Shown here in pieces: positions 850 to 64,000 of a DNA stretch of 64,000 nucleotides (the first letter of the stretch is position 1; each line of letters opens with the position of its first letter). The stretch is from positions 20,919 to 84,918 of the forward strand of contig JBGTEY010000014.1 in assembly GCA_041747555.1 (NCBI GenBank), in the 5' to 3' direction. The notes beneath the pieces are model-generated. The model saw only the letters and a list, made by a program, of their open reading frames with translations. It was not told where the DNA came from and did not search any database. Both the position numbers and the translations under genes were made by a program. The stretch is from Patescibacteria group bacterium (lineage in GTDB: Bacteria > Patescibacteriota > Microgenomatia > UBA1400 > PJMF01).

Positions 850-923
850 TGGTCGCACCTGGACTCGAACCAGGGACCTCACGAATGTGAATCGTGCGCT
901 CTAACCAACTGAGCTATGCGACC
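850..923 (-). tRNA. tRNA-Val (anticodon CAC)
   Basis: The reverse complement folds as a 74-nt cloverleaf: acceptor GGTCGCA/TGCGACC, D-stem GCTC/GAGC, anticodon stem CACGA/TCGTG with loop TTCACAT (anticodon CAC), T-arm CCTGG-TTCGAGT-CCAGG, discriminator A. CCA is not encoded. Confidence 0.85.
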
Positions 924-30912: not shown

Positions 30913-31406
30913 TATAACTCCTCATGGGCGAGCGCGCGTTTGGCAGTCAGAACCACAAATTCACCAGTTTTGTCAAAGTCATACTGACCTAGCTCATCGA
31001 GTGACGCCCAAGCATACTCGGTGTGCTCGTCGCTGAGGACAACTTGTGGTCGAGCTGTAGCGTCAATTGCAATATTCCATCCAAAAATAATGGAAAACAT
31101 CTGTTGTGATGCATCAAAGTAGGTATTGAGATATGTCAATGCAGATTCGGTAAATTGATCGGCGTTTAGTGCAATTCCTGTTTCTTCTTGCACCTCTCGG
31201 ACCGCATCGGCTGCATACTGCCCATCACCTGATTGATCAGTTACGGGCCACTCTGAATTCCCGCCCGGTAAGTCCCACTTTTCTGGCCTACTTTTGGCGT
31301 CGGATGCTCTTTTAAGCAACAATACATGACCATCATGTACCAGTGCCACTTTTTGCAAAAGTTTAACTTGATCGGTGAGATGGTGGGGTTTGTTTGGACT
31401 ATGCAT
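30912..31406 (-). CDS. NUDIX hydrolase
   Basis: Nudix box GGNSEWPVT...AVREVQEETGI; start placed at the ATG 31404-31406, directly abutting the sufC stop. Confidence 0.7.
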   Translation of the reverse strand: MHSPNKPHHLTDQVKLLQKVALVHDGHVLLLKRASDAKSRPEKWDLPGGNSEWPVTDQSGDGQYAADAVREVQEETGIALNADQFTESALTYLNTYFDASQQMFSIIFGWNIAIDATARPQVVLSDEHTEYAWASLDELGQYDFDKTGEFVVLTAKRALAHEEL

Positions 31407-31407
31407 G

Positions 31408-32202
31408 TTATTTTTGGTGTGTGTACCCTTCGCTGTCGACTTGGGTAGCAAGCTCAGGGCCACCGCTTTTGGCAATTTTTCCATCAATCACAATGTGAAC
31501 ATAATCTGGACTCAAGTAATCAAGAATTCGCTGATAGTGAGTGATGACAAGCACACCAGTGTTAAATCGCTTTACAACTTCTTTGACTCCAGCGGCTACT
31601 TTTTTGATGGCATCCACGTCTAACCCCGAATCAGTTTCATCCAAAATGGCATACTTTGGTTCAAGAACAGCCATTTGCACAATTTCAAGTTGCTTCTTCT
31701 CACCGCCACTAAACCCTTCGTTGAGTCCACGTTCTAGCAATTTTTCATTGACCTTAAGGTCTTTTGTGAGTGACTGCAAATGCTTTCTAAAATCAATAGC
31801 TCGTTTAAACTGCTTTTTTTCATCCTCTTGAAATCGCTCTTGATGTGCCAAGCGCAAAAAGTTCTGCACACGAACACCCGGAACTTCTACCGGATACTGA
31901 AATGCCAAAAACAACCCAAGTTGCGCACGCTCATCGGGTGACATTTCTAGAATTGAGACACCATCTACCGTTGCCTCACCATTGAGAATTTCATATGCAG
32001 GGTGACCCGCAAGCGTTGCAGCCAAAGTTGATTTTCCAGAACCATTAGGGCCCATGATCGCATGCACTTCACCTGGCTTAACTTCTAGAGAAATGCCTTT
32101 GAGAATTTCTGTTTCCTCCACAGAGACTCTCAGATCGGTGATTTTGAGTGATTTTTCTACTTTTTTGCCTGTTTTTTTATTTTTTTGCATATTCCCTCGC
32201 AA
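31408..32202 (-). CDS. sufC: Fe-S cluster assembly ATPase SufC
   Basis: GPNGSGKST, LSGGEKK, ILDETDSGLD motifs. Confidence 0.9.
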   Translation of the reverse strand: MRGNMQKNKKTGKKVEKSLKITDLRVSVEETEILKGISLEVKPGEVHAIMGPNGSGKSTLAATLAGHPAYEILNGEATVDGVSILEMSPDERAQLGLFLAFQYPVEVPGVRVQNFLRLAHQERFQEDEKKQFKRAIDFRKHLQSLTKDLKVNEKLLERGLNEGFSGGEKKQLEIVQMAVLEPKYAILDETDSGLDVDAIKKVAAGVKEVVKRFNTGVLVITHYQRILDYLSPDYVHIVIDGKIAKSGGPELATQVDSEGYTHQK

Positions 32203-32725
32203 TTTTTAGTGCCAAGCGTGCTTCTGCACGGATATCATCGATCGTTTCAATTTCATCAAGTTCTGAATCAGAAAACCATGCGATGCCATCGGTTTCTTCA
32301 ACGTTTTGCGTAAATTCAATCGAACCAACCGCTTCCATTAAGTACAAAAAACCTAAATGTTGTTCGCAGCCTTTTGGCCAAAGTTTGGTTGAAACGCGTT
32401 TTTCATGGTCTTCACTTGCGAGTCGTGAATCGAAATTTTCTTTTGAAACCCAGTGAATATTTGAGGTAATTGGTGTTGGTAAGTACTGAGAGGTTGTGGA
32501 ATCTCTTAAAATTCCAATCGGTGCGGCTTTTACCTTTATTCCTGTTTCTTCCCAAAATTCACGCTCTGCTGTTTGGTGGGGGAGCTCATCTTCCTCTGTG
32601 TGACCACCGGGAGCGAGCCACATCTTTAATTTCTTATGCTTTACTAAAAGCACTTTTTCGTCCGCAACCAAAAAACCCGCAGCAGTCAAACACGTTTTTG
32701 CCTGAAAATGTTGTAGATCAATCAC
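32177..32725 (-). CDS. NUDIX hydrolase
   Basis: Nudix box GGHTEEDELPHQTAEREFWEETGI. Confidence 0.75.
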   Translation of the reverse strand: MIDLQHFQAKTCLTAAGFLVADEKVLLVKHKKLKMWLAPGGHTEEDELPHQTAEREFWEETGIKVKAAPIGILRDSTTSQYLPTPITSNIHWVSKENFDSRLASEDHEKRVSTKLWPKGCEQHLGFLYLMEAVGSIEFTQNVEETDGIAWFSDSELDEIETIDDIRAEARLALKIAREYAKK

Positions 32726-32756
32726 GGGTGTATTGTACCAGGTTTTGCCATGGGCT

Positions 32757-33341
32757 CTAGATTAAACTCATCTGGACTCCCGCATCTTTTTGGGGAGCAA
32801 AGCTAAAATCCACGGGACAATCAATTAATCTATTCCATTTGTTTTTAAACTGCACAAAACCTTTTTGCAACCCAACGTCATAAATATCACGTGTCACGGC
32901 AACGTCCTGCAAACAGTATTTTTCAAGTGCGTCCCAGTTTTGATTTTTGTAATATTTGATCGCATCTAATCCATCGCCACTTTTTCCAATTCCAAGGGTT
33001 TCCTGAGCTACTGAATCTAACTTAATGCGATGTCCTGCGCTATCTTTGATCCTGGTTAAAAGATCAAGTGTTGGAATACGAGAAATGTCTCCTGTGTAAT
33101 AGGTAGTAAATGTGGGCATGTCAAAATTATCGATATTGAACCCAATCACAATGTCAGCCTTTTCTAACAGCGGAAATAAATCAGGCAAATCTTTTTCAAA
33201 AAAACTGAGCATTTCACCTTTGCCAGAAAATCCCGTTCGAGCACATACGCCCACAAATGAAATACCAAGTTTTTCGGGGAAAAAGCCGCCGACTTCATCA
33301 AATGTTTTTTTGGTTTCAACATCAAGAATAAGCTGCAACAT
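32757..33341 (-). CDS. RNase H-fold 3'-5' exonuclease (PolB-exonuclease-like, DEDDy)
   Basis: ILDVET Exo I motif and YCLQDVAVTRDIYD Exo III motif. Confidence 0.55.
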   Translation of the reverse strand: MLQLILDVETKKTFDEVGGFFPEKLGISFVGVCARTGFSGKGEMLSFFEKDLPDLFPLLEKADIVIGFNIDNFDMPTFTTYYTGDISRIPTLDLLTRIKDSAGHRIKLDSVAQETLGIGKSGDGLDAIKYYKNQNWDALEKYCLQDVAVTRDIYDVGLQKGFVQFKNKWNRLIDCPVDFSFAPQKDAGVQMSLI

Positions 33342-47561: not shown

Positions 47562-47954
47562 TTATTTAATTTCTTGTGATATCTGATAGAGCCAATTCCA
47601 ACCATTTTTAGTTATTCCTTTTGAAGGTGTATTCTTTCGGATCAGCTGAAGCTCATTTGTAATGACGTCAAATACTTTTTCTGTATAGGCTTTCTCAAGT
47701 ATTGCATTGATCAGATTATGAATCGCTTCATAGACCTTGGGGTACTTATAAATTTTAGCACCACCAAGCTGAGATTGAAAAAATGACTCATTTAGTTGAC
47801 TTTCTCCAAACGGAGAATAATTCTTCAACGCATCAAGCAGCATGTCCTGCCGATATCGCATATATAACACATTCTTTTCAAGCTCTGCTTCAGTCATTTC
47901 TGCTGAAGTAGCTACACTAGCACCACCATCATGTATAATTTCTGCGGTCATCAC
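47562..47954 (-). CDS. hypothetical protein (130 aa) inserted between grpE and dnaK
   Basis: ORF whose start overlaps the grpE stop by 4 bp. Confidence 0.45.
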   Translation of the reverse strand: MMTAEIIHDGGASVATSAEMTEAELEKNVLYMRYRQDMLLDALKNYSPFGESQLNESFFQSQLGGAKIYKYPKVYEAIHNLINAILEKAYTEKVFDVITNELQLIRKNTPSKGITKNGWNWLYQISQEIK

Positions 47955-48793
47955 TCCACCTCCCCCAACACCACTTTTGCGTGCTGAATCACAGAATCAT
48001 ATAACCGATAGCCGTCTTGAACAACTTTGATAACTATATCACCCGAACCATTTTTATCCACAGCTTCCATCGTTTCAATATCAAATTTCTTGCCAAGGAC
48101 GTCAATTTTTTGGAGTCCGTGATTTTCGAGCGCTTGCTTGAGTTGTTGGACCACCATGCTCAAACCAGTGTCGTCAATTTGCTTCGCTGCCAAATCGAGA
48201 AGACTGAGTGGTTGCAGCAGGTCTTCCACGACTTGTTGGGTTGCATACTTGGCGAGTTTGCCTCGTTCTTCTGCGGTTCGTCGTTGGAGATTGCGATAAT
48301 CTGCAAGTGCTCGTTGTTCCTTTTGGTGAGCCAAATTGAGTTTAGCTGCATCTGTTTTGGCTTCGATGAAGGCGTTGATGTCACGAAGTACGCCTGGGTC
48401 TTTCACGAGTTTCAAGGCTTTATCTAGAGTTACCCATTGATATTCCTGATGCTCATGACTTAACTTCACTTCCTGGTCAGGTGTTTGACACCAATACGTC
48501 AAGCCAATCACTTCATTTTCTGCACGCTTCTCACCTCTGTAAAAATGCCAACCAGTGAGTAATCTCACGAATTCAATATTCTTAATGCCCGTTTCTTCTC
48601 GAATTTCTCTCCTCAAACCAGCTTCAGGATCTTCACCCTGGTCAATTCGGCCGTAGCCAGTTTCCCAAATGCCTGGCTTATAGTTATCCTCAGAACGCTG
48701 CAAAAGTAATATCGTTTCAGTTTCTGGGTGCTCAAGAATTGCTCCCGCCGCAACCATAAAAGTGCCAATATCTGTAGGTGTATCAGATTTCAT
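47951..48793 (-). CDS. grpE: Nudix-domain / GrpE fusion protein (nucleotide exchange factor)
   Basis: N-terminal Nudix box GYGRIDQGEDPEAGLRREIREETGI. C-terminal GrpE features: helix ...ADYRNLQRRTAEER... plus a beta-domain ...VVQDGYRLYDSVIQHAKVVLG. One uninterrupted 280-codon frame. Confidence 0.7.
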   Translation of the reverse strand: MKSDTPTDIGTFMVAAGAILEHPETETILLLQRSEDNYKPGIWETGYGRIDQGEDPEAGLRREIREETGIKNIEFVRLLTGWHFYRGEKRAENEVIGLTYWCQTPDQEVKLSHEHQEYQWVTLDKALKLVKDPGVLRDINAFIEAKTDAAKLNLAHQKEQRALADYRNLQRRTAEERGKLAKYATQQVVEDLLQPLSLLDLAAKQIDDTGLSMVVQQLKQALENHGLQKIDVLGKKFDIETMEAVDKNGSGDIVIKVVQDGYRLYDSVIQHAKVVLGEVE

Positions 48794-48797
48794 GATG

Positions 48798-49520
48798 TTA
48801 TTCTACTATTTCTTGAATTAATGTTCTTAAATACCGCATCATCGGGAAAATGTAAGGATAATCAAAACGACTTGATCCCAGTACTCCCAGACGACACATT
48901 TGGCCATCTACTACGACACTCATATAAATCACACCAATCGGCTCTAAATATTTGTTCCCAAGTTCTGGACCGTATACCACTTGTACAATATTTTCACTAC
49001 TTCCGTAGGTAAAAATATCCTCAAGCAATGGTTGTTCCTCAATTAGTTGCAACACGTGTCGCATCACTTGAATATCATAAAATTCTGGCATTTGGAGCAA
49101 ATTTGCATACCCCGCATGAAAAATCTTGGTGTCATCGAGCATGCCAATGGCGAGCGCATGTGATTTGTCCGCAAGGACTTTGGTAATTTGATTGAGTAAA
49201 TCATCGAGCTCGTGACGACTTTGCCAGACTTTTTCTTTAGCAGAAACTTCATCGGCTACGGTCAAATCGCGTTCACGCATCAATTCGTTGACGTATAGTT
49301 TGAGCGCGCGCGGTGTGGGCAATCTACCCGCACTGCTGTGCGTTTTTGATAAATATCCTTGATTGGAAAGATACACCATTTCGTTGCGAATGGTGGCAGG
49401 TGAGACGCCGATGTTAAATTTTTTATCAATGGTATCTGAGCCTACTGGCTCTGCAGTCTCGATGAACTCGTCGATGATAGATCTAAGAATCTGAATTTGC
49501 CGAGCGGTAAGATCTATCAT
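48798..49520 (-). CDS. hrcA: heat-inducible transcription repressor HrcA
   Basis: N-terminal winged-helix region (...LTARQIQILRSIIDEFIETAEPVGSDTI...); operon position. Confidence 0.75.
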   Translation of the reverse strand: MIDLTARQIQILRSIIDEFIETAEPVGSDTIDKKFNIGVSPATIRNEMVYLSNQGYLSKTHSSAGRLPTPRALKLYVNELMRERDLTVADEVSAKEKVWQSRHELDDLLNQITKVLADKSHALAIGMLDDTKIFHAGYANLLQMPEFYDIQVMRHVLQLIEEQPLLEDIFTYGSSENIVQVVYGPELGNKYLEPIGVIYMSVVVDGQMCRLGVLGSSRFDYPYIFPMMRYLRTLIQEIVE

Positions 49521-59179: not shown

Positions 59180-59725
59180 TTATTTTTTCACTGCTTTGTA
59201 TGCTTGTTCAGATCGCCTGATAAGATCTGTCAAAAATTCATCATACTCATACCCTGCGCCTGTCGCACTCCTACCTTTGCCTAATTGTCTTAAGTGCGTA
59301 CTTACGGCACTGTTGTGCATCGTTCTCCAGCGCCACATTCCTTTAAAAAGCTCAGAAAGCGGTGGCAACAGTGGATTATCATCTGACAAGTTCTCTGAAA
59401 TCACCCTCTGCCTTAATGACACAAAATCAGCATTTTCAAAAATCGATTGGAATTTCTCTTTCACCCTGGTGGGAAAGTACACTAATTGCGAAGTAATTCG
59501 TCCCTGAGTTGCTTCATCTGCGCCGTAGAGCAAAATGTCTATCATCGCTATTGAATGATCAGCATTGGTGTTATTTTGAACAGTTGTTGTCATTTCTCCG
59601 TCCGGTCCTTTCCAAAGTGGTTTTTCTAGCTCAAGTGGTTTGGTTGCATATTTACGGCGACGATCAAAAAACTCTGGTGAAACATTTTTTCGTAATTCAA
59701 GCATAATCTGGGCAGTAGCATTCAT
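59180..59725 (-). CDS. hypothetical protein (181 aa)
   Basis: ORF only. Confidence 0.4.
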   Translation of the reverse strand: MNATAQIMLELRKNVSPEFFDRRRKYATKPLELEKPLWKGPDGEMTTTVQNNTNADHSIAMIDILLYGADEATQGRITSQLVYFPTRVKEKFQSIFENADFVSLRQRVISENLSDDNPLLPPLSELFKGMWRWRTMHNSAVSTHLRQLGKGRSATGAGYEYDEFLTDLIRRSEQAYKAVKK

Positions 59726-59737
59726 TGCAATTGCCGC

Positions 59738-60310
59738 TTATTGAGCCACAATCGCAAGATGCGGTTTATTCTCCCAATCAGCAGACTGCAATAGGCGGTT
59801 GATGCCAGAAATAACTATTGAAAACTCTCTGGCAAAATCCTGATCGTAACGAATAAGTGCCAATTCTTCCTCCTCATTGGTGAATGACCGAGTTGCTGCT
59901 CCTTTTGCGTTGACATAGCTATACGCATACTTGCAGTCTCGAGGTGGCAAACCTGTTACCCGCGAAAGTGTCAGTAAAGCATCAATGAGCTGAGGAAATT
60001 GACTTGATACATCAATTCCTTTGTAATTCAACGCCGAAACTGCCATGCCAATGTCTTGCTGCGCACGCTCTATTACTTCGATAGGACCAAACGTTACGAG
60101 CTCATTTATCTGCCTACTCGATGGCAATGAAGCAAGTAGCTGTGTAATAAAATGTTCTAACTCTATCCTATCTGTATTCAAAAGTGGAACTGAAGCAACC
60201 ACAAACTTACTAAAACTACCAAGAGGAAAGACATGCTCTGGTGACTCTTTAATTCGTTCTATTTGTGCCATCTGTCTATTATAGGATATTACTTGTTGTA
60301 CATCAAGCAC
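59738..60310 (-). CDS. hypothetical protein (190 aa)
   Basis: ORF only; 12 bp upstream of the preceding gene. Confidence 0.4.
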   Translation of the reverse strand: MLDVQQVISYNRQMAQIERIKESPEHVFPLGSFSKFVVASVPLLNTDRIELEHFITQLLASLPSSRQINELVTFGPIEVIERAQQDIGMAVSALNYKGIDVSSQFPQLIDALLTLSRVTGLPPRDCKYAYSYVNAKGAATRSFTNEEEELALIRYDQDFAREFSIVISGINRLLQSADWENKPHLAIVAQ

Positions 60311-60614
60311 AAATATTAGTATGGTTTTCTATAGTATTTGATAGATACCCTTCCTACTAAATTTTTCTTTGCTACAATGCGAAAATAGTTCCATACCGAA
60401 TATAAAAAAAGCAGATCTCTGCACTCAGCTTCTGAGCAATTTAAGCCAGTGAGGTTGATGAAATCAGAATGCGGTACCGTTCGGTTAGGAAAGCTGATTT
60501 AGTTCAATATTTATCAGTTACTATTATTGGACGCGTGTTGAGAATTATACTTTACAATATGTAACTGATGTGTAATAATTCGTCACTATAAAATACTTAT
60601 TAAGTGGAAAAAGT

Positions 60615-61265
60615 ATGATTTTTATAACTGGACCACACTGCTCTGGAAAAACACACGCACTTCGCAATGTATACGAGTATGGTTTTCCATCGATCGATTT
60701 GGGTCCAACTCTGCGAAAACTCTATCAAGACTTTTCGTTCGGTTTAACATTTCCACAGTGGCTGGTGACTGGTGAAGAATCTTATGGTGATTCCTTTACC
60801 GACAGACTAATTGTCCTAGCAATTGAGGAATGGATAGAAAAACAACTCGCCAAACATGAGGGAAAAATTCAGGACTTTATTATTTCTGGAAATAGATCAG
60901 TTGGAGGCATTCAGTATATCGTAGATCATTTTGATATTGTGGGCGAACCAACAGTAATTTATGTAGACGCAGATCCTGAAGTGTTAAGATCGCGATACCA
61001 ACAGCGTGAAGGTGTCATAGTGAGCCCTGAAGACTTTGAGGCTTATTTAGATCGTGATTATAGAATGGGTTTAGCAAGTGTCCGTAGATTTGCGACACAT
61101 CTAATATCCAATGGCGACACGACAGATGATAATTTGAGAAGAAAAATGGATGCAATACTATTTGATGAGTTAGGACACAAAAAAGAATCAGTGCTTGATC
61201 CTAAAGAAGGAAGGATTTCATTAGAAAATGAATGCAGATTCGCAATGAATAAGGAACGAAAATGA
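60615..61265 (+). CDS. P-loop NTPase / small-molecule kinase-fold protein
   Basis: Walker A GPHCSGKT at residues 6-13; length and layout like the AAA_33 / gluconate-kinase-like kinases. Confidence 0.55.
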   Translation: MIFITGPHCSGKTHALRNVYEYGFPSIDLGPTLRKLYQDFSFGLTFPQWLVTGEESYGDSFTDRLIVLAIEEWIEKQLAKHEGKIQDFIISGNRSVGGIQYIVDHFDIVGEPTVIYVDADPEVLRSRYQQREGVIVSPEDFEAYLDRDYRMGLASVRRFATHLISNGDTTDDNLRRKMDAILFDELGHKKESVLDPKEGRISLENECRFAMNKERK

Positions 61266-62404
61266 CAGTAAAAGAACAGCATTCAGATGCTCGCCGCGTT
61301 CCTGGCCTACAAAACCATGAACATGCACCTACATCCGCTGAACATCCCATCACTGCTCAAGACAGAATCGATGCGACAGTTCGACAATTAGATCCACTCA
61401 ATGCCGATGAGTTGTTTGAATTGATGGCTGATGCCAATGATCTTAGTGATACTCAGTCGCTGTGCACAATCGGTGATGAGCTCGTAAAAAGAGCTAACCG
61501 TAGAGTATTGAGTTCCTGCTCATATGAGGAATCATTGGCTATGTTGCGTGACCTGGGCATGCTAGCAGCGTCATTGGCTAAGTTCAACTTATTGGTTGAT
61601 TCAGTTCCTGGATTGGAACAACTATTACTCCAGCTGGGCTCAGTAACTGAAGAAGTACCTCGAGACACAGTCTTTTCATACGGTCCCAGAAACCCACAGC
61701 AACCAGAAAGAATGCGAAAATTTACGACAACTGACGCTGAGACAGTATTTATCGAGTCATTCAGCGAAGGAATGAAGCACTTGGGTGCTGTAATTCTGGC
61801 ATTGGAAACAGCACTTGCTGCTACAGACCCAGATGAAATAGCCACCAACCTTAGAGCTGCCACAGAACAGCTTACTGAAATGACCCAAGCGATAGTCAGA
61901 GTAAGAAGAAAAATTCCACCCGAGGTGTTTACATACCAGCTACGACCATTTTTTGATCCCGTAACCGTTGGGGGTCAGTCTTACTTAGCACCGGGAGGCG
62001 CCCAGATGCCCGTCATTATAGTTGATAAATTGGTATGGGGAATTGGCAGAGAGTATCCTGAATTCGAAGAATACTTCCAGGAAAATCTCCAGTACCACCC
62101 CAGAGGATATCGAGAGTTTTGGCAGGAGCTTTCAAATACTCTTACGCAAAATTTAGTCGACAGATTAATCGAATTGACTCAACAACCTGATTCAAATGGC
62201 ACATATACGAATGCACTGGAGGAATTATTGACATTTATCAACACGCTGATCAAATTTCGGGTGCCCCATCTAAAGGTAGCAACGGATAATTTTCAATTAA
62301 GAGAAGGCGATGAAGTGGGAAGTGGTGGCTACCAACCAACGATATTAGAGCAACTTCTGGAAGCAACGAAGGCCGCAAGAAGTCAAGTGCAATCAGCTCT
62401 GTAG
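61262..62404 (+). CDS. hypothetical all-alpha protein (380 aa); speculative TDO/PrnB-like fold
   Basis: ORF translationally coupled (ATGA overlap) to the P-loop gene; helical composition; conserved-looking VPHLKV near the C-terminus. Confidence 0.4.
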   Translation: MTVKEQHSDARRVPGLQNHEHAPTSAEHPITAQDRIDATVRQLDPLNADELFELMADANDLSDTQSLCTIGDELVKRANRRVLSSCSYEESLAMLRDLGMLAASLAKFNLLVDSVPGLEQLLLQLGSVTEEVPRDTVFSYGPRNPQQPERMRKFTTTDAETVFIESFSEGMKHLGAVILALETALAATDPDEIATNLRAATEQLTEMTQAIVRVRRKIPPEVFTYQLRPFFDPVTVGGQSYLAPGGAQMPVIIVDKLVWGIGREYPEFEEYFQENLQYHPRGYREFWQELSNTLTQNLVDRLIELTQQPDSNGTYTNALEELLTFINTLIKFRVPHLKVATDNFQLREGDEVGSGGYQPTILEQLLEATKAARSQVQSAL

Positions 62405-62421
62405 TAGATACTAGGAACCTT

Positions 62422-63507
62422 ATGAAAGATGATTTTTCCAGTTACCCAGTCGGAACAGTTTTTAATCCAATTAAGAATCAGTTTAAGGAATCAACACCAC
62501 AACATCGAGAAGTCTCGATTGAGTTTCCAAGTAGACTGAACGCCATGGCAATAGATCCCAGTAAAATTGCAACCAATGAAAACATGGTCTTCACTCCTGG
62601 CGAAGTCGTGTTTGCAATTGCGATCACAAAAAAAATACAAGTCACTGTTGTTCAATCGTCATCCAAAATTGCAATCAATGCCACAGCCAAACGAAAGTCG
62701 CTAATTTTACATGCCGCACTGCTTATGAAAGCGGCATTAGGGTTTGAGAATGGTCTGATGATCGATGTAGATAACTCAGATGAGCTCAAACATTGCGGCT
62801 TGGGATCAAGTAGCAGCCTCATTGCCGGTGTAGCAGCAGCCATAAACGAAGTATATGGCAATCCTATTCCACACAATGTTCTACTTAAGTACATTGCACA
62901 AAATCATGGTGAGGAGATTGACAATGATGATGAACAGCTCATGCCCGTTCAATGCATCGGTGGGTCAGCCTCATCTGGATTATATGAGGGATCTGCACTG
63001 ATTTTAACAGGAGAAAACACAGTAATCGTTAACAAGAAGATTGACAATAAAGCGGTACTAATTGGAATTCCAAATGATTTTATCCCCAGAGATTCAGAAG
63101 AATTATTAGAAGATGAAATAAAGAATTTTAATAAGTTTATAGCTACTGGCGTGAAATATGGAAAAGAAATTGCCTACGATATGCTGCATAAGGCTATACC
63201 AGGCTTGTATAACAATGACCTCTCTGCTTTAGGGGATTTAATTTTTAGATATCGATTTGACATGGGAAGTATTGACAACTGTTCATTCGTTTTTCCCCGA
63301 ATGAACTCGATAGCTAATAATTTGAGACAACCCTATTCTGTGCATAAACCAGATGTACTGGCGCTCTCCTCTGTGGGTCCAGCTTTTTTTGTAATTTGCG
63401 AACAAAAAGATGAAAGCACTTGGGCCACTATATTTGAGAATGAAAATATGAAAGTACTACCTACCAAACTCTACAACACGAAGTACAAAGTACTGCACAC
63501 TGAATAG
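62422..63507 (+). CDS. GHMP-kinase-fold protein (sugar / small-molecule kinase or beta-RFAP-synthase-like)
   Basis: GHMP motif II HCGLGSSSSLIAGVAAAI. Confidence 0.6.
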   Translation: MKDDFSSYPVGTVFNPIKNQFKESTPQHREVSIEFPSRLNAMAIDPSKIATNENMVFTPGEVVFAIAITKKIQVTVVQSSSKIAINATAKRKSLILHAALLMKAALGFENGLMIDVDNSDELKHCGLGSSSSLIAGVAAAINEVYGNPIPHNVLLKYIAQNHGEEIDNDDEQLMPVQCIGGSASSGLYEGSALILTGENTVIVNKKIDNKAVLIGIPNDFIPRDSEELLEDEIKNFNKFIATGVKYGKEIAYDMLHKAIPGLYNNDLSALGDLIFRYRFDMGSIDNCSFVFPRMNSIANNLRQPYSVHKPDVLALSSVGPAFFVICEQKDESTWATIFENENMKVLPTKLYNTKYKVLHTE

Positions 63508-63513
63508 GACACT

Positions 63514-64000
63514 ATGGGAAGACCGAAAGACTTACAGCCAGGAATAGGGTATTGGAATGACGGCCGCCACAGCGAGTACAGAGCAAAACCACCCTCAAGT
63601 TTTGTTCAAAGGTCATTAGACATGATCATGCAGGATGTGCCCGAAGGCACACTGCTTAAATCTCTTGATGCTGGATCAGGTGGTGGAAGAAACAGCGCGC
63701 CTTTCATTCACGCAGGATGTGAGGCGTATGCTTTTGATTACCACACAGAAATGGTGGCACAAACACAGCAACTGTTTGCAGAAATGAGCCAAAACCCACT
63801 GAATGTTACTCAGCAAGAAATGTCACAGCTGTCTTTCTCAGATGGTGCATTCGATATAGTGTTGTCAAATGGAGTAATCCATAATGCAGTTTCTGCAGAG
63901 CATTTTTTGGCTACAATTGAAGAGTTATCTCGAGTAATTACACCAGGCGGTCACCTTATTTTTTCTGTATTTACCGCTGATGAGATTTCAAGCGAGTTAG
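63514..64000 (+). CDS. class I SAM-dependent methyltransferase (5' partial, continues beyond window)
   Basis: Motif I LDAGSGGGRN and a motif post-I acidic residue. Confidence 0.65.
   Translation, partial: MGRPKDLQPGIGYWNDGRHSEYRAKPPSSFVQRSLDMIMQDVPEGTLLKSLDAGSGGGRNSAPFIHAGCEAYAFDYHTEMVAQTQQLFAEMSQNPLNVTQQEMSQLSFSDGAFDIVLSNGVIHNAVSAEHFLATIEELSRVITPGGHLIFSVFTADEISSEL

Follow-up and report, generated by a model that had tools for sequence, protein, structure and literature searches.

PrnB is known from the literature as a histidine-ligated haem enzyme, and in the structure of FbPrnB with tryptophan, the substrate binds through its amine to the iron and through its carboxylate to Gly210, Gly211, and Ser319 (PMC11791213). 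In ForT, the phosphates of phosphoribosyl pyrophosphate (PRPP) are bound by Arg-19 in the first strand and by the turn from His-99 to Ser-104 (PMC8183095). The Peptidase_U32 proteins UbiU/V, TrhP, and RlhA are needed for O2-independent, prephenate-dependent aromatic hydroxylations; O2-dependent routes parallel the U32 ones for ubiquinone and for 5-hydroxyuridine (ho5U) in tRNA, and phenylpyruvate is the proposed by-product of prephenate (PMC10990095, PMC6599085, PMC6747719, PMC5727448). Here we analyze a 64,000-nt stretch of DNA from a Patescibacteria group bacterium (assembly GCA_041747555.1, contig JBGTEY010000014.1, positions 20,919 to 84,918 of the forward strand), hereafter called the window. 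At its end lies a cassette of four plus-strand genes, g1 to g4, which encode a P-loop protein of the nucleoside monophosphate (NMP) kinase fold, a PrnB-family haem protein, a GHMP-fold protein, and a class I S-adenosylmethionine (SAM) methyltransferase. We see an even chance that this cassette is the haem-dependent, aerobic version of a widespread system that makes a methylated non-canonical ribonucleotide, most likely C-linked, from an aromatic amino acid.

Linkage and alternation of the cassette genes

A search with the g2 profile, with one genome taken per species, gave 35 loci, and a search of metagenomes with the GHMP profile gave 80 further loci, among which 31 are counted as complete, with at least 3.5 kb on either side of the GHMP gene. 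The gene association recurs in about 115 independent loci. The PrnB-like, GHMP, and methyltransferase genes are found together in 33 of the 35 genome loci, whose hosts are Patescibacteria metagenome-assembled genomes (MAGs), one archaeal MAG, and actinomycetes of the genera Streptomyces, Micromonospora, Kitasatospora, Nocardia, and Dactylosporangium (21 loci, 20 of them with the full triad). Some of the genes are also fused: PrnB-GHMP fusions occur in L003, L041, and P0221, and GHMP-methyltransferase fusions are common, at least two of them being annotated as archaeal. Because synteny is conserved and the genes are fused, chance adjacency of housekeeping genes is excluded, and the linkage of the cassette is not a product of chance. 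The original prediction had proposed a non-standard enzyme cassette, and this view stands, since the genes are co-localized across genomes and do not map to unrelated housekeeping families. Literature searches aimed at the cassette found no description of it, and it is apparently undescribed so far.

The genes around the triad are also linked to it. In Patescibacteria-type loci, Ham1 is present in 14 of 15 loci, the P-loop protein in 13, and a GreA-like protein in 12, whereas a NUDIX gene replaces Ham1 in 17 of the 21 actinomycete loci. The metagenome loci likewise combine the cassette with P-loop, Ham1, and Gre-like genes. A longer actinomycete operon adds genes for a GNAT protein, a flavin amine oxidase, a dual-specificity phosphatase, a 790-aa pyridoxal phosphate (PLP) decarboxylase, APH-type kinases, and a second P-loop protein. 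Combined with a putative tryptophan oxygenase, the decarboxylase, the GNAT protein, and the methyltransferase recall the enzymes that make melatonin, a likeness that we regard as a lead only.

The metagenome loci show that the PrnB-like gene has a counterpart. Among the 31 complete loci, 12 hold only the PrnB-like gene, 17 hold only a Peptidase_U32-like gene, two hold neither, and none holds both; a shorter locus outside this set (L067) holds both genes. A HisC/CobD-like PLP aminotransferase accompanies the U32-like gene in 14 of 17 loci and the PrnB-like gene in none of 12. The Pfam family Peptidase_U32 (PF01136) is matched by all 24 U32-like proteins tested (best E-value 1.4e-12), and in these proteins Cys198, Cys202, and Cys226 are invariant and Cys16 is nearly so, a candidate cysteine set for a 4Fe-4S cluster. 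Among the NCBIfam models, the U32-like protein matches TrhP alone, with a weak E-value of 6.6e-4. In a neighbour-joining tree, the GHMP sequences of PrnB-type and U32-type cassettes interleave; 62 positions that are at least 90% conserved carry the identical residue in both types, and no position is differently conserved. Judged from these aligned positions, both types of cassette almost certainly present the GHMP enzyme with the same molecules. The PrnB-like protein on the one side and the U32-like protein with the aminotransferase on the other look like functional alternates.

The actinomycete loci are all of the PrnB type (21 of 21) and a human-gut contig (L119) is of the U32 type, a host distribution that fits O2-dependent and O2-independent versions of one system. 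Because the characterized U32 stand-ins are O2-independent aromatic hydroxylases, the analogy suggests that the PrnB-like cassette enzyme performs an O2-dependent ring oxidation. The aminotransferase could, speculatively, handle prephenate or phenylpyruvate.

Four further observations concern the distribution of the cassette. A subgroup of U32-type loci (L115, L118, L119, L113, and L117) is without the P-loop, Ham1, and Gre-like genes, and L115, L118, and L119 carry in their place two other linked and conserved genes that have no annotation, of cluster 10 (about 406 aa) and cluster 12 (about 274 aa). The loci L007, L010, L033, and L035 come from MAGs labeled 'uncultured Gammaproteobacteria' and are Patescibacteria-type cassettes with Ham1 and P-loop genes, three of them also with a Gre-like gene; mistakes in binning or taxonomy may account for the labels. 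The 883-aa protein P0218 carries an HEPN/Toprim N-terminal domain ahead of PrnB-like and GHMP domains, and may be either a genuine fusion to a defence-type domain or an artefact of gene calling. In Micromonospora (L037:16439-21083), a giant TIR-NACHT-pentapeptide-WD40 gene lies about 1.1 kb past the terminal NUDIX gene of the cassette, with one small unannotated gene between them.

The encoded proteins and their arrangement

The g2 protein is a member of the PrnB family. Pfam PrnB (PF08933) is matched with 102.4 bits against a cut-off of 27 (3e-29), and IDO is also matched above its cut-off (33.6 bits, 2.4e-8). A profile of 26 g2 homologues matches the sequences of the PrnB crystal structures 9dfg and 2v7i at 4.6e-87 and 3.2e-85, respectively. 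His336 is invariant in the g2 family and aligned with the histidine of the FbPrnB motif KFRKPH, which agrees with the original prediction, where a TDO/PrnB-like identity had been suggested speculatively for this 380-aa helical protein with a C-terminal conserved histidine. In addition, G245 and G246 (PGGAQ) and S354 (GSGGY) are nearly invariant and, by residue count on the alignment, correspond to the FbPrnB carboxylate ligands Gly210, Gly211, and Ser319. As His336 and these ligand residues align with FbPrnB, the likely substrate of g2 is an aromatic alpha-amino acid bound on the haem. In a distance tree, the cassette PrnB-like proteins group in a clade of their own, separate from FbPrnB and the Streptomyces homologues P0091 and P0093, and the gene for P0091 adjoins a halogenase-type flavoprotein gene. 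Beside the indole-pocket tyrosine, the cassette clade reads FSYGPRNP where the classical proteins read HYGPWNP or HHYTTWNP, with a Trp-to-Arg change. Apart from the cassettes, about ten PrnB-like proteins (P0079-P0089; 505-567 aa) are fused to an HATPase_c_2 domain (PF13581), which we take to be an anti-sigma-factor/RsbW-type kinase domain; these fusions hint that some PrnB relatives are haem-based sensors rather than biosynthetic enzymes.

The g3 protein has the GHMP fold, and GHMP_kinases_N is the only Pfam family that it matches above the cut-off (37.3 bits against 22.3). The best NCBIfam model for g3 is beta-RFAP synthase (NF040726), with a full-length alignment. An AlphaFold2 model built with 30 homologues has a pLDDT (predicted local distance difference test) of 91.3 and matches many GHMP structures; in a Foldseek search of the PDB, ForT takes ranks 1 to 3 (E-values 5e-16 to 3e-15), followed by homoserine and mevalonate kinases from 3e-14. 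Searches of the PDB sequences with the g3 protein and profile find only kinases, weakly, and no ForT, so the ForT link comes from the structure model. An exhaustive g3 profile search of 1.84 billion representatives gave 304 proteins at an E-value of 1e-3 or lower. Among ten full-length outgroup proteins nearest to g3, which lie in the tail of this list, beta-RFAP synthase is the best match for nine. The g3 family and seven beta-RFAP-like neighbours have in common the invariant residues P36, R38, D45, H97, H124-x-G-x-G, N142, N161, E164, and SSxGP, and S129 of the HxGxGS loop is nearly invariant across them. By position and spacing only, g3 R38, H124-S129, and S131 fit ForT Arg-19, His-99 to Ser-104, and Thr-106. 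Because the nearest neighbours, the best family model, the top fold matches, and the shared motifs all belong to the beta-RFAP synthase/ForT branch, g3 is probably a PRPP-using, C-C bond-forming enzyme and not a kinase. The original prediction had counted two kinase folds in the cassette; the NMP-kinase and GHMP folds are both present, but the phosphorylation content was overstated.

The g1 protein alone falls just below the cut-off of Pfam AAA_18 (26.2 bits against 29.4). A profile of 23 cassette P-loop homologues (A5) matches the AdkA-like protein SSO1041 at 1e-16 and then adenylate and UMP-CMP kinases at 1e-8. The fold assignment is based on this profile built from locus open reading frames (ORFs); a word-indexed search had given three relatives, and the AlphaFold2 model, with a pLDDT of 46, was left unused. 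The P-loop gene is present in 25 of the 31 complete cassettes. The g4 protein matches Methyltransf_11 with 64.1 bits against a cut-off of 21.2 (1.9e-17) and has a Methyltransf_11/25 class I domain, as had been predicted. The Ham1 proteins match XTP/dITP diphosphatase models. Nucleoside-deoxyribosyltransferase-like genes are present in 8 of the 31 complete cassettes, often directly upstream of the PrnB-like gene. The accessory genes, encoding the NMP-kinase fold, Ham1/ITPase, NUDIX, and deoxyribosyltransferase-like proteins, suggest that the cassette deals with nucleotides. In a separate observation, 10 of the 80 metagenome loci (cluster 8; L051, L052, L062, and others, e.g., L052:8713-9384) have an Asp/Glu-type amino-acid racemase gene in linkage with the gene for the GHMP-methyltransferase fusion, directly downstream in L051 and L052, which further hints at an amino acid as the starting material of the pathway.

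A GreA-like gene is present in 20 of the 31 complete cassettes. The cassette GreA-like proteins are full-length and divergent and fall into two types with the tip motifs SHSDT or HDD..E (e.g., L046:6069-6542 and L064:5992-6498), where a housekeeping GreA from a cassette-bearing genome (L012:16273-16743) carries DLSENAEY. One archaeal cassette also holds such a gene (L040:1-508), which makes a role of the protein at RNA polymerase uncertain; Gre factors are not known to be used by archaeal RNA polymerase.

The ORF listing and translation agree with the original description of tightly packed plus-strand genes with coupling of g2 to g1 (Table 1). The g1 stop and the g2 start overlap in ATGA, g2 and g3 are separated by 17 nt, and g3 and g4 by 6 nt. 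The Logan contig L001, obtained by exact-match look-up, equals the window over 11,579 nt and reaches 2.5 kb past it; there it holds the complete methyltransferase gene, followed by a convergent Ham1/ITPase gene, a second Ham1 gene, and a gene for a small membrane protein. Upstream of the cassette are housekeeping genes for MscS, DivIC, an XerC/D-type recombinase, TrpRS, and FtsH.

Table 1. Coordinates of the cassette genes and adjacent features in the window
Feature	Positions	Strand	Size	Description
g1	60615-61265	+	216 aa	NMP-kinase-fold P-loop protein; Walker A GPHCSGKT; N-terminus MIFITGPHCSGKT
g2	61262-62404	+	380 aa	PrnB-family haem protein of the cassette clade; proximal His336
g3	62422-63507	+	361 aa	GHMP fold, beta-RFAP synthase/ForT-like branch; contains KHCGLGSSSS; putative PRPP-dependent C-glycoside synthase
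g4	63514-64000	+	231 aa when complete (L001:11093-11788)	Class I SAM methyltransferase, truncated by the window edge
Second PrnB-family gene, N-terminal half	59738-60310	-	190 codons + TAA	TAA at 59738-59740
Same PrnB paralogue, C-terminal half	59180-59725	-	181 aa	Histidine of the WRWRTMH motif retained
Divergent intergenic region	60311-60614	none	304 bp	

The two minus-strand ORFs had been taken for two hypothetical proteins, a reading that has to be replaced. They lie in one reading frame, with a gap of one TAA and four codons between them, and the joined sequence of 376 residues is matched by the PrnB-like profile A1 at positions 38-362 of 369 (E-value 9e-27). An intact counterpart (L007:10998-12146), which stands in tandem with the g2 orthologue in its locus, is 34% identical over 353 residues to the joined ORFs. 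The proximal-histidine motif is kept in the paralogue, with WRWRTMH aligned with KFRVPH (KFRxPH). The sequences thus identify the two ORFs as a single divergent g2 paralogue interrupted by an in-frame TAA. The TAA is also present in the Logan assembly of the region, which is identical in sequence and possibly built from the same reads; the interruption may mean that the paralogue is a pseudogene or a split gene, or it may come from an error in a base.

In the divergent intergenic region, a candidate promoter with an extended TG (TTTACA-17-AATAAT) lies at 60551-60579 on the plus strand; the promoter-like and terminator-like sites there show no excess over shuffled sequences, and the repeats are trivial. 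An Rfam scan of this region found no riboswitch and no other family. Across the whole window, the only Rfam matches above the gathering score are a tmRNA at 1677-2102 (+; 96 bits) and a tRNA at 850-923 (-). A profile seeded with an actinomycete cassette NUDIX protein also matches the window ORFs 30915-31487, 32180-32761, and 47954-48802, all on the minus strand, with a best E-value of 8e-19.

Proposed pathway and competing explanations

The identities of the genes, their conserved linkage, the fusions, and the alternation of PrnB and U32 beside an unchanged GHMP enzyme are shown by the sequences; which compound is oxidized, how the steps follow one another, whether PRPP is used, and what the product is and does, we infer as follows. 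The PrnB-like haem enzyme would use O2 to oxidize an aromatic alpha-amino acid, probably tryptophan, probably by ring hydroxylation or a related oxidation. The GHMP-fold enzyme would then couple the electron-rich ring to C1' of PRPP, giving a ribonucleoside 5'-phosphate, which the SAM methyltransferase would methylate. The NMP-kinase-like P-loop protein would raise the phosphorylation state, and the Ham1/ITPase-type pyrophosphatases would turn the triphosphate back to the monophosphate, either as a step of the pathway or for protection of the producer. In actinomycetes, the NMP-kinase-like protein and the NUDIX protein, in place of Ham1, would set the phosphorylation state, and in oxygen-free relatives, a Peptidase_U32-type iron-sulfur protein with the HisC/CobD-like aminotransferase would take the place of the haem enzyme. 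The order PrnB, GHMP, methyltransferase is weakly indicated by the domain order of the fusions (PrnB-GHMP and GHMP-methyltransferase). As for its role, the product may serve as cofactor, signal, or antimetabolite. The wider proposal is that an undescribed pathway to a new tryptophan-derived methylated C-ribonucleotide is common to Patescibacteria, DPANN-type archaea, and actinomycetes, in an aerobic form with a PrnB-type haem oxygenase and an anaerobic form with a new Peptidase_U32 subfamily and an aminotransferase; it is put forward only tentatively, as somewhat more likely to be wrong in part than to hold in full.

Several observations weigh against the proposed route. On the side of g3, the scores are far under the cut-offs of the beta-RFAP synthase models (31.2 against 328 bits for NF040726 and 19.2 against 113.5 bits for TIGR00144), Foldseek separates ForT from true kinases only modestly (5e-16 versus 3e-14), and no equivalent of the PRPP-binding Arg-135 of ForT was identified in g3, where the region reads NHGEE. 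The enzymes characterized so far in this branch couple PRPP to aromatic acids with release of PPi and CO2, and no such carboxylic acid is evident for the cassette. PrnB itself rearranges the indole ring to an aminophenylpyrrole instead of hydroxylating it, and its own reaction has never been reconstituted from purified enzyme. The exclusion of PrnB and U32 has a Fisher p of 6e-7, which is nominal as the loci share ancestry. One U32-like member aligns to profile positions 4-53 only, the U32 assignment being based on the Pfam matches, and the U32-like proteins found no match among the sequences of solved structures. The cassette of the window is itself without Gre-like and deoxyribosyltransferase-like genes.

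Other explanations share part of this evidence. The cassette might tailor a small molecule other than a nucleotide, derived from tryptophan, with g3 as an ATP-dependent kinase acting on a hydroxyl and the P-loop, Ham1, and NUDIX proteins serving cofactor handling or resistance by phosphorylation. The sole Pfam family of g3 and the structural closeness of homoserine and mevalonate kinases are in line with this, as are the actinomycete clusters, which combine a melatonin-like set (an aromatic-amino-acid-type PLP decarboxylase, a GNAT protein, and a methyltransferase) with several APH-type kinases. The beta-RFAP synthase/ForT affinities of g3 and the nucleotide-specific accessory genes (NMP-kinase fold, ITPase, NUDIX, and deoxyribosyltransferase-like) point the other way, and we regard this explanation as unlikely. 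It is about as unlikely that the product is a toxic nucleotide analogue acting as an antiviral or inter-microbial weapon, with Ham1 or NUDIX and the Gre-like protein protecting the producer, a role that would be compatible with the chemistry proposed above. Sanitizing pyrophosphatases are always adjacent, the divergent GreA-like gene is frequent, the actinomycete versions, with their kinases and phosphatases, resemble gene clusters for nucleoside antibiotics, and the ForT-type products formycin and pyrazofurin are antimetabolites (PMC8183095). However, in a scan of ten cassette proteins with the PADLOC models, nine gave no match and the methyltransferase only a generic one (mad2), the surroundings are housekeeping genes without signs of mobile elements, the archaeal cassette has a Gre-like gene as well, and the very wide retention in minimal genomes may suit a cofactor better. 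Of the products considered in the original prediction, a modified nucleotide is the best supported, and a defence-related system finds no known counterpart beyond that generic methyltransferase match.

A further explanation, to which we assign a low probability, is RNA modification, in which the U32-like or PrnB-like protein would hydroxylate and the methyltransferase would methylate bases of tRNA or rRNA, similar to the formation of ho5U and 5-methoxyuridine (mo5U) by TrhP and a methyltransferase. Two characterized U32 proteins hydroxylate RNA pyrimidines, and separate O2-dependent alternatives exist (PMC6599085, PMC5727448); the weak TrhP match of the U32-like protein also agrees with it. 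RNA modification offers no explanation for the ForT-like enzyme, the NMP kinase, or Ham1; the ligands for the carboxylate of a free amino acid are retained in the PrnB-like protein, and the fusions tie the hydroxylase directly to the ForT-like domain. A pyrrolnitrin-type or kynurenine/NAD-type pathway, to which the Pfam matches to PrnB and IDO might point, or adjacency of housekeeping genes by chance, is hardly credible. The pyrrolnitrin pathway was rejected, as no cassette holds a halogenase or PrnD-type gene and the clade is separate from FbPrnB and the halogenase-adjacent P0091, and the kynurenine/NAD pathway was rejected, as no formamidase or kynureninase family is found among the cassette-linked gene clusters. 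Methanopterin biosynthesis was also considered and rejected, as no other genes of that pathway turned up.

Sets of six to eight linked biosynthetic genes are seldom retained in minimal genomes, which makes it probable that the product matters to these organisms, be it a cofactor, a signal, or a weapon against hosts or viruses. If the wider proposal is true, ultra-small symbionts would own a dedicated non-canonical nucleotide, either a cofactor or an antimetabolite, and the PrnB clade would gain a second and simpler kind of catalysis. C-nucleotides are valued drug scaffolds and few enzymes forming C-C glycosidic bonds are known, to which the g3 family would add a large and well-conserved group. 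The alternation of PrnB and U32 gives a testable function to an uncharacterized U32 subfamily. It also opens a new route into PrnB chemistry after decades without reconstitution from pure enzyme, for which the natural PrnB-GHMP fusions are ready test objects.

Comparison with known systems

The closest likeness of g3 is to ForT, PyfQ, and beta-RFAP (RHP) synthase, of the formycin, pyrazofurin, and methanopterin pathways, which have the same GHMP-derived fold and among which ForT is the top structural match. By position and spacing, a first-strand arginine and a His-x-Gly-x-Gly-Ser loop of g3 correspond to the phosphate-binding elements of ForT, and the neighbouring genes of g3 are nucleotide-flavoured. 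Unlike these enzymes, g3 lies far under the family cut-offs, is only about 17% identical, and has no evident Arg-135. The ForT/PyfQ and RFAP pathways use partner enzymes other than those of the cassette, the C-glycoside synthase itself excepted: the cassette partners are a PrnB-like or U32-like protein, a methyltransferase, an NMP kinase, and Ham1, with no pyrazole-forming or methanopterin genes.

With PrnB (monodechloroaminopyrrolnitrin synthase) and the IDO/TDO haem superfamily, g2 shares a Pfam match above the cut-off and the retained proximal histidine and Gly-Gly and Ser carboxylate ligands. It differs from PrnB in that the cassette proteins form a separate clade with 26-33% identity and their own indole-pocket substitutions, and in that the cassette is without prnA, prnC, and prnD. 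Because the cassette PrnB-like protein is interchangeable with U32, a simpler oxidation than the rearrangement of PrnB is suggested.

The alternation itself resembles that of UbiI/H/F with UbiU/V and of TrhO with TrhP, where a U32 iron-sulfur protein replaces an O2-using enzyme in an otherwise identical pathway. The O2-using partner in the cassette is a PrnB-type haem protein, whereas in those pathways it is a flavin or rhodanese-type enzyme, and the U32 subfamily of the cassette is an uncharacterized one that comes with a HisC/CobD-like aminotransferase.

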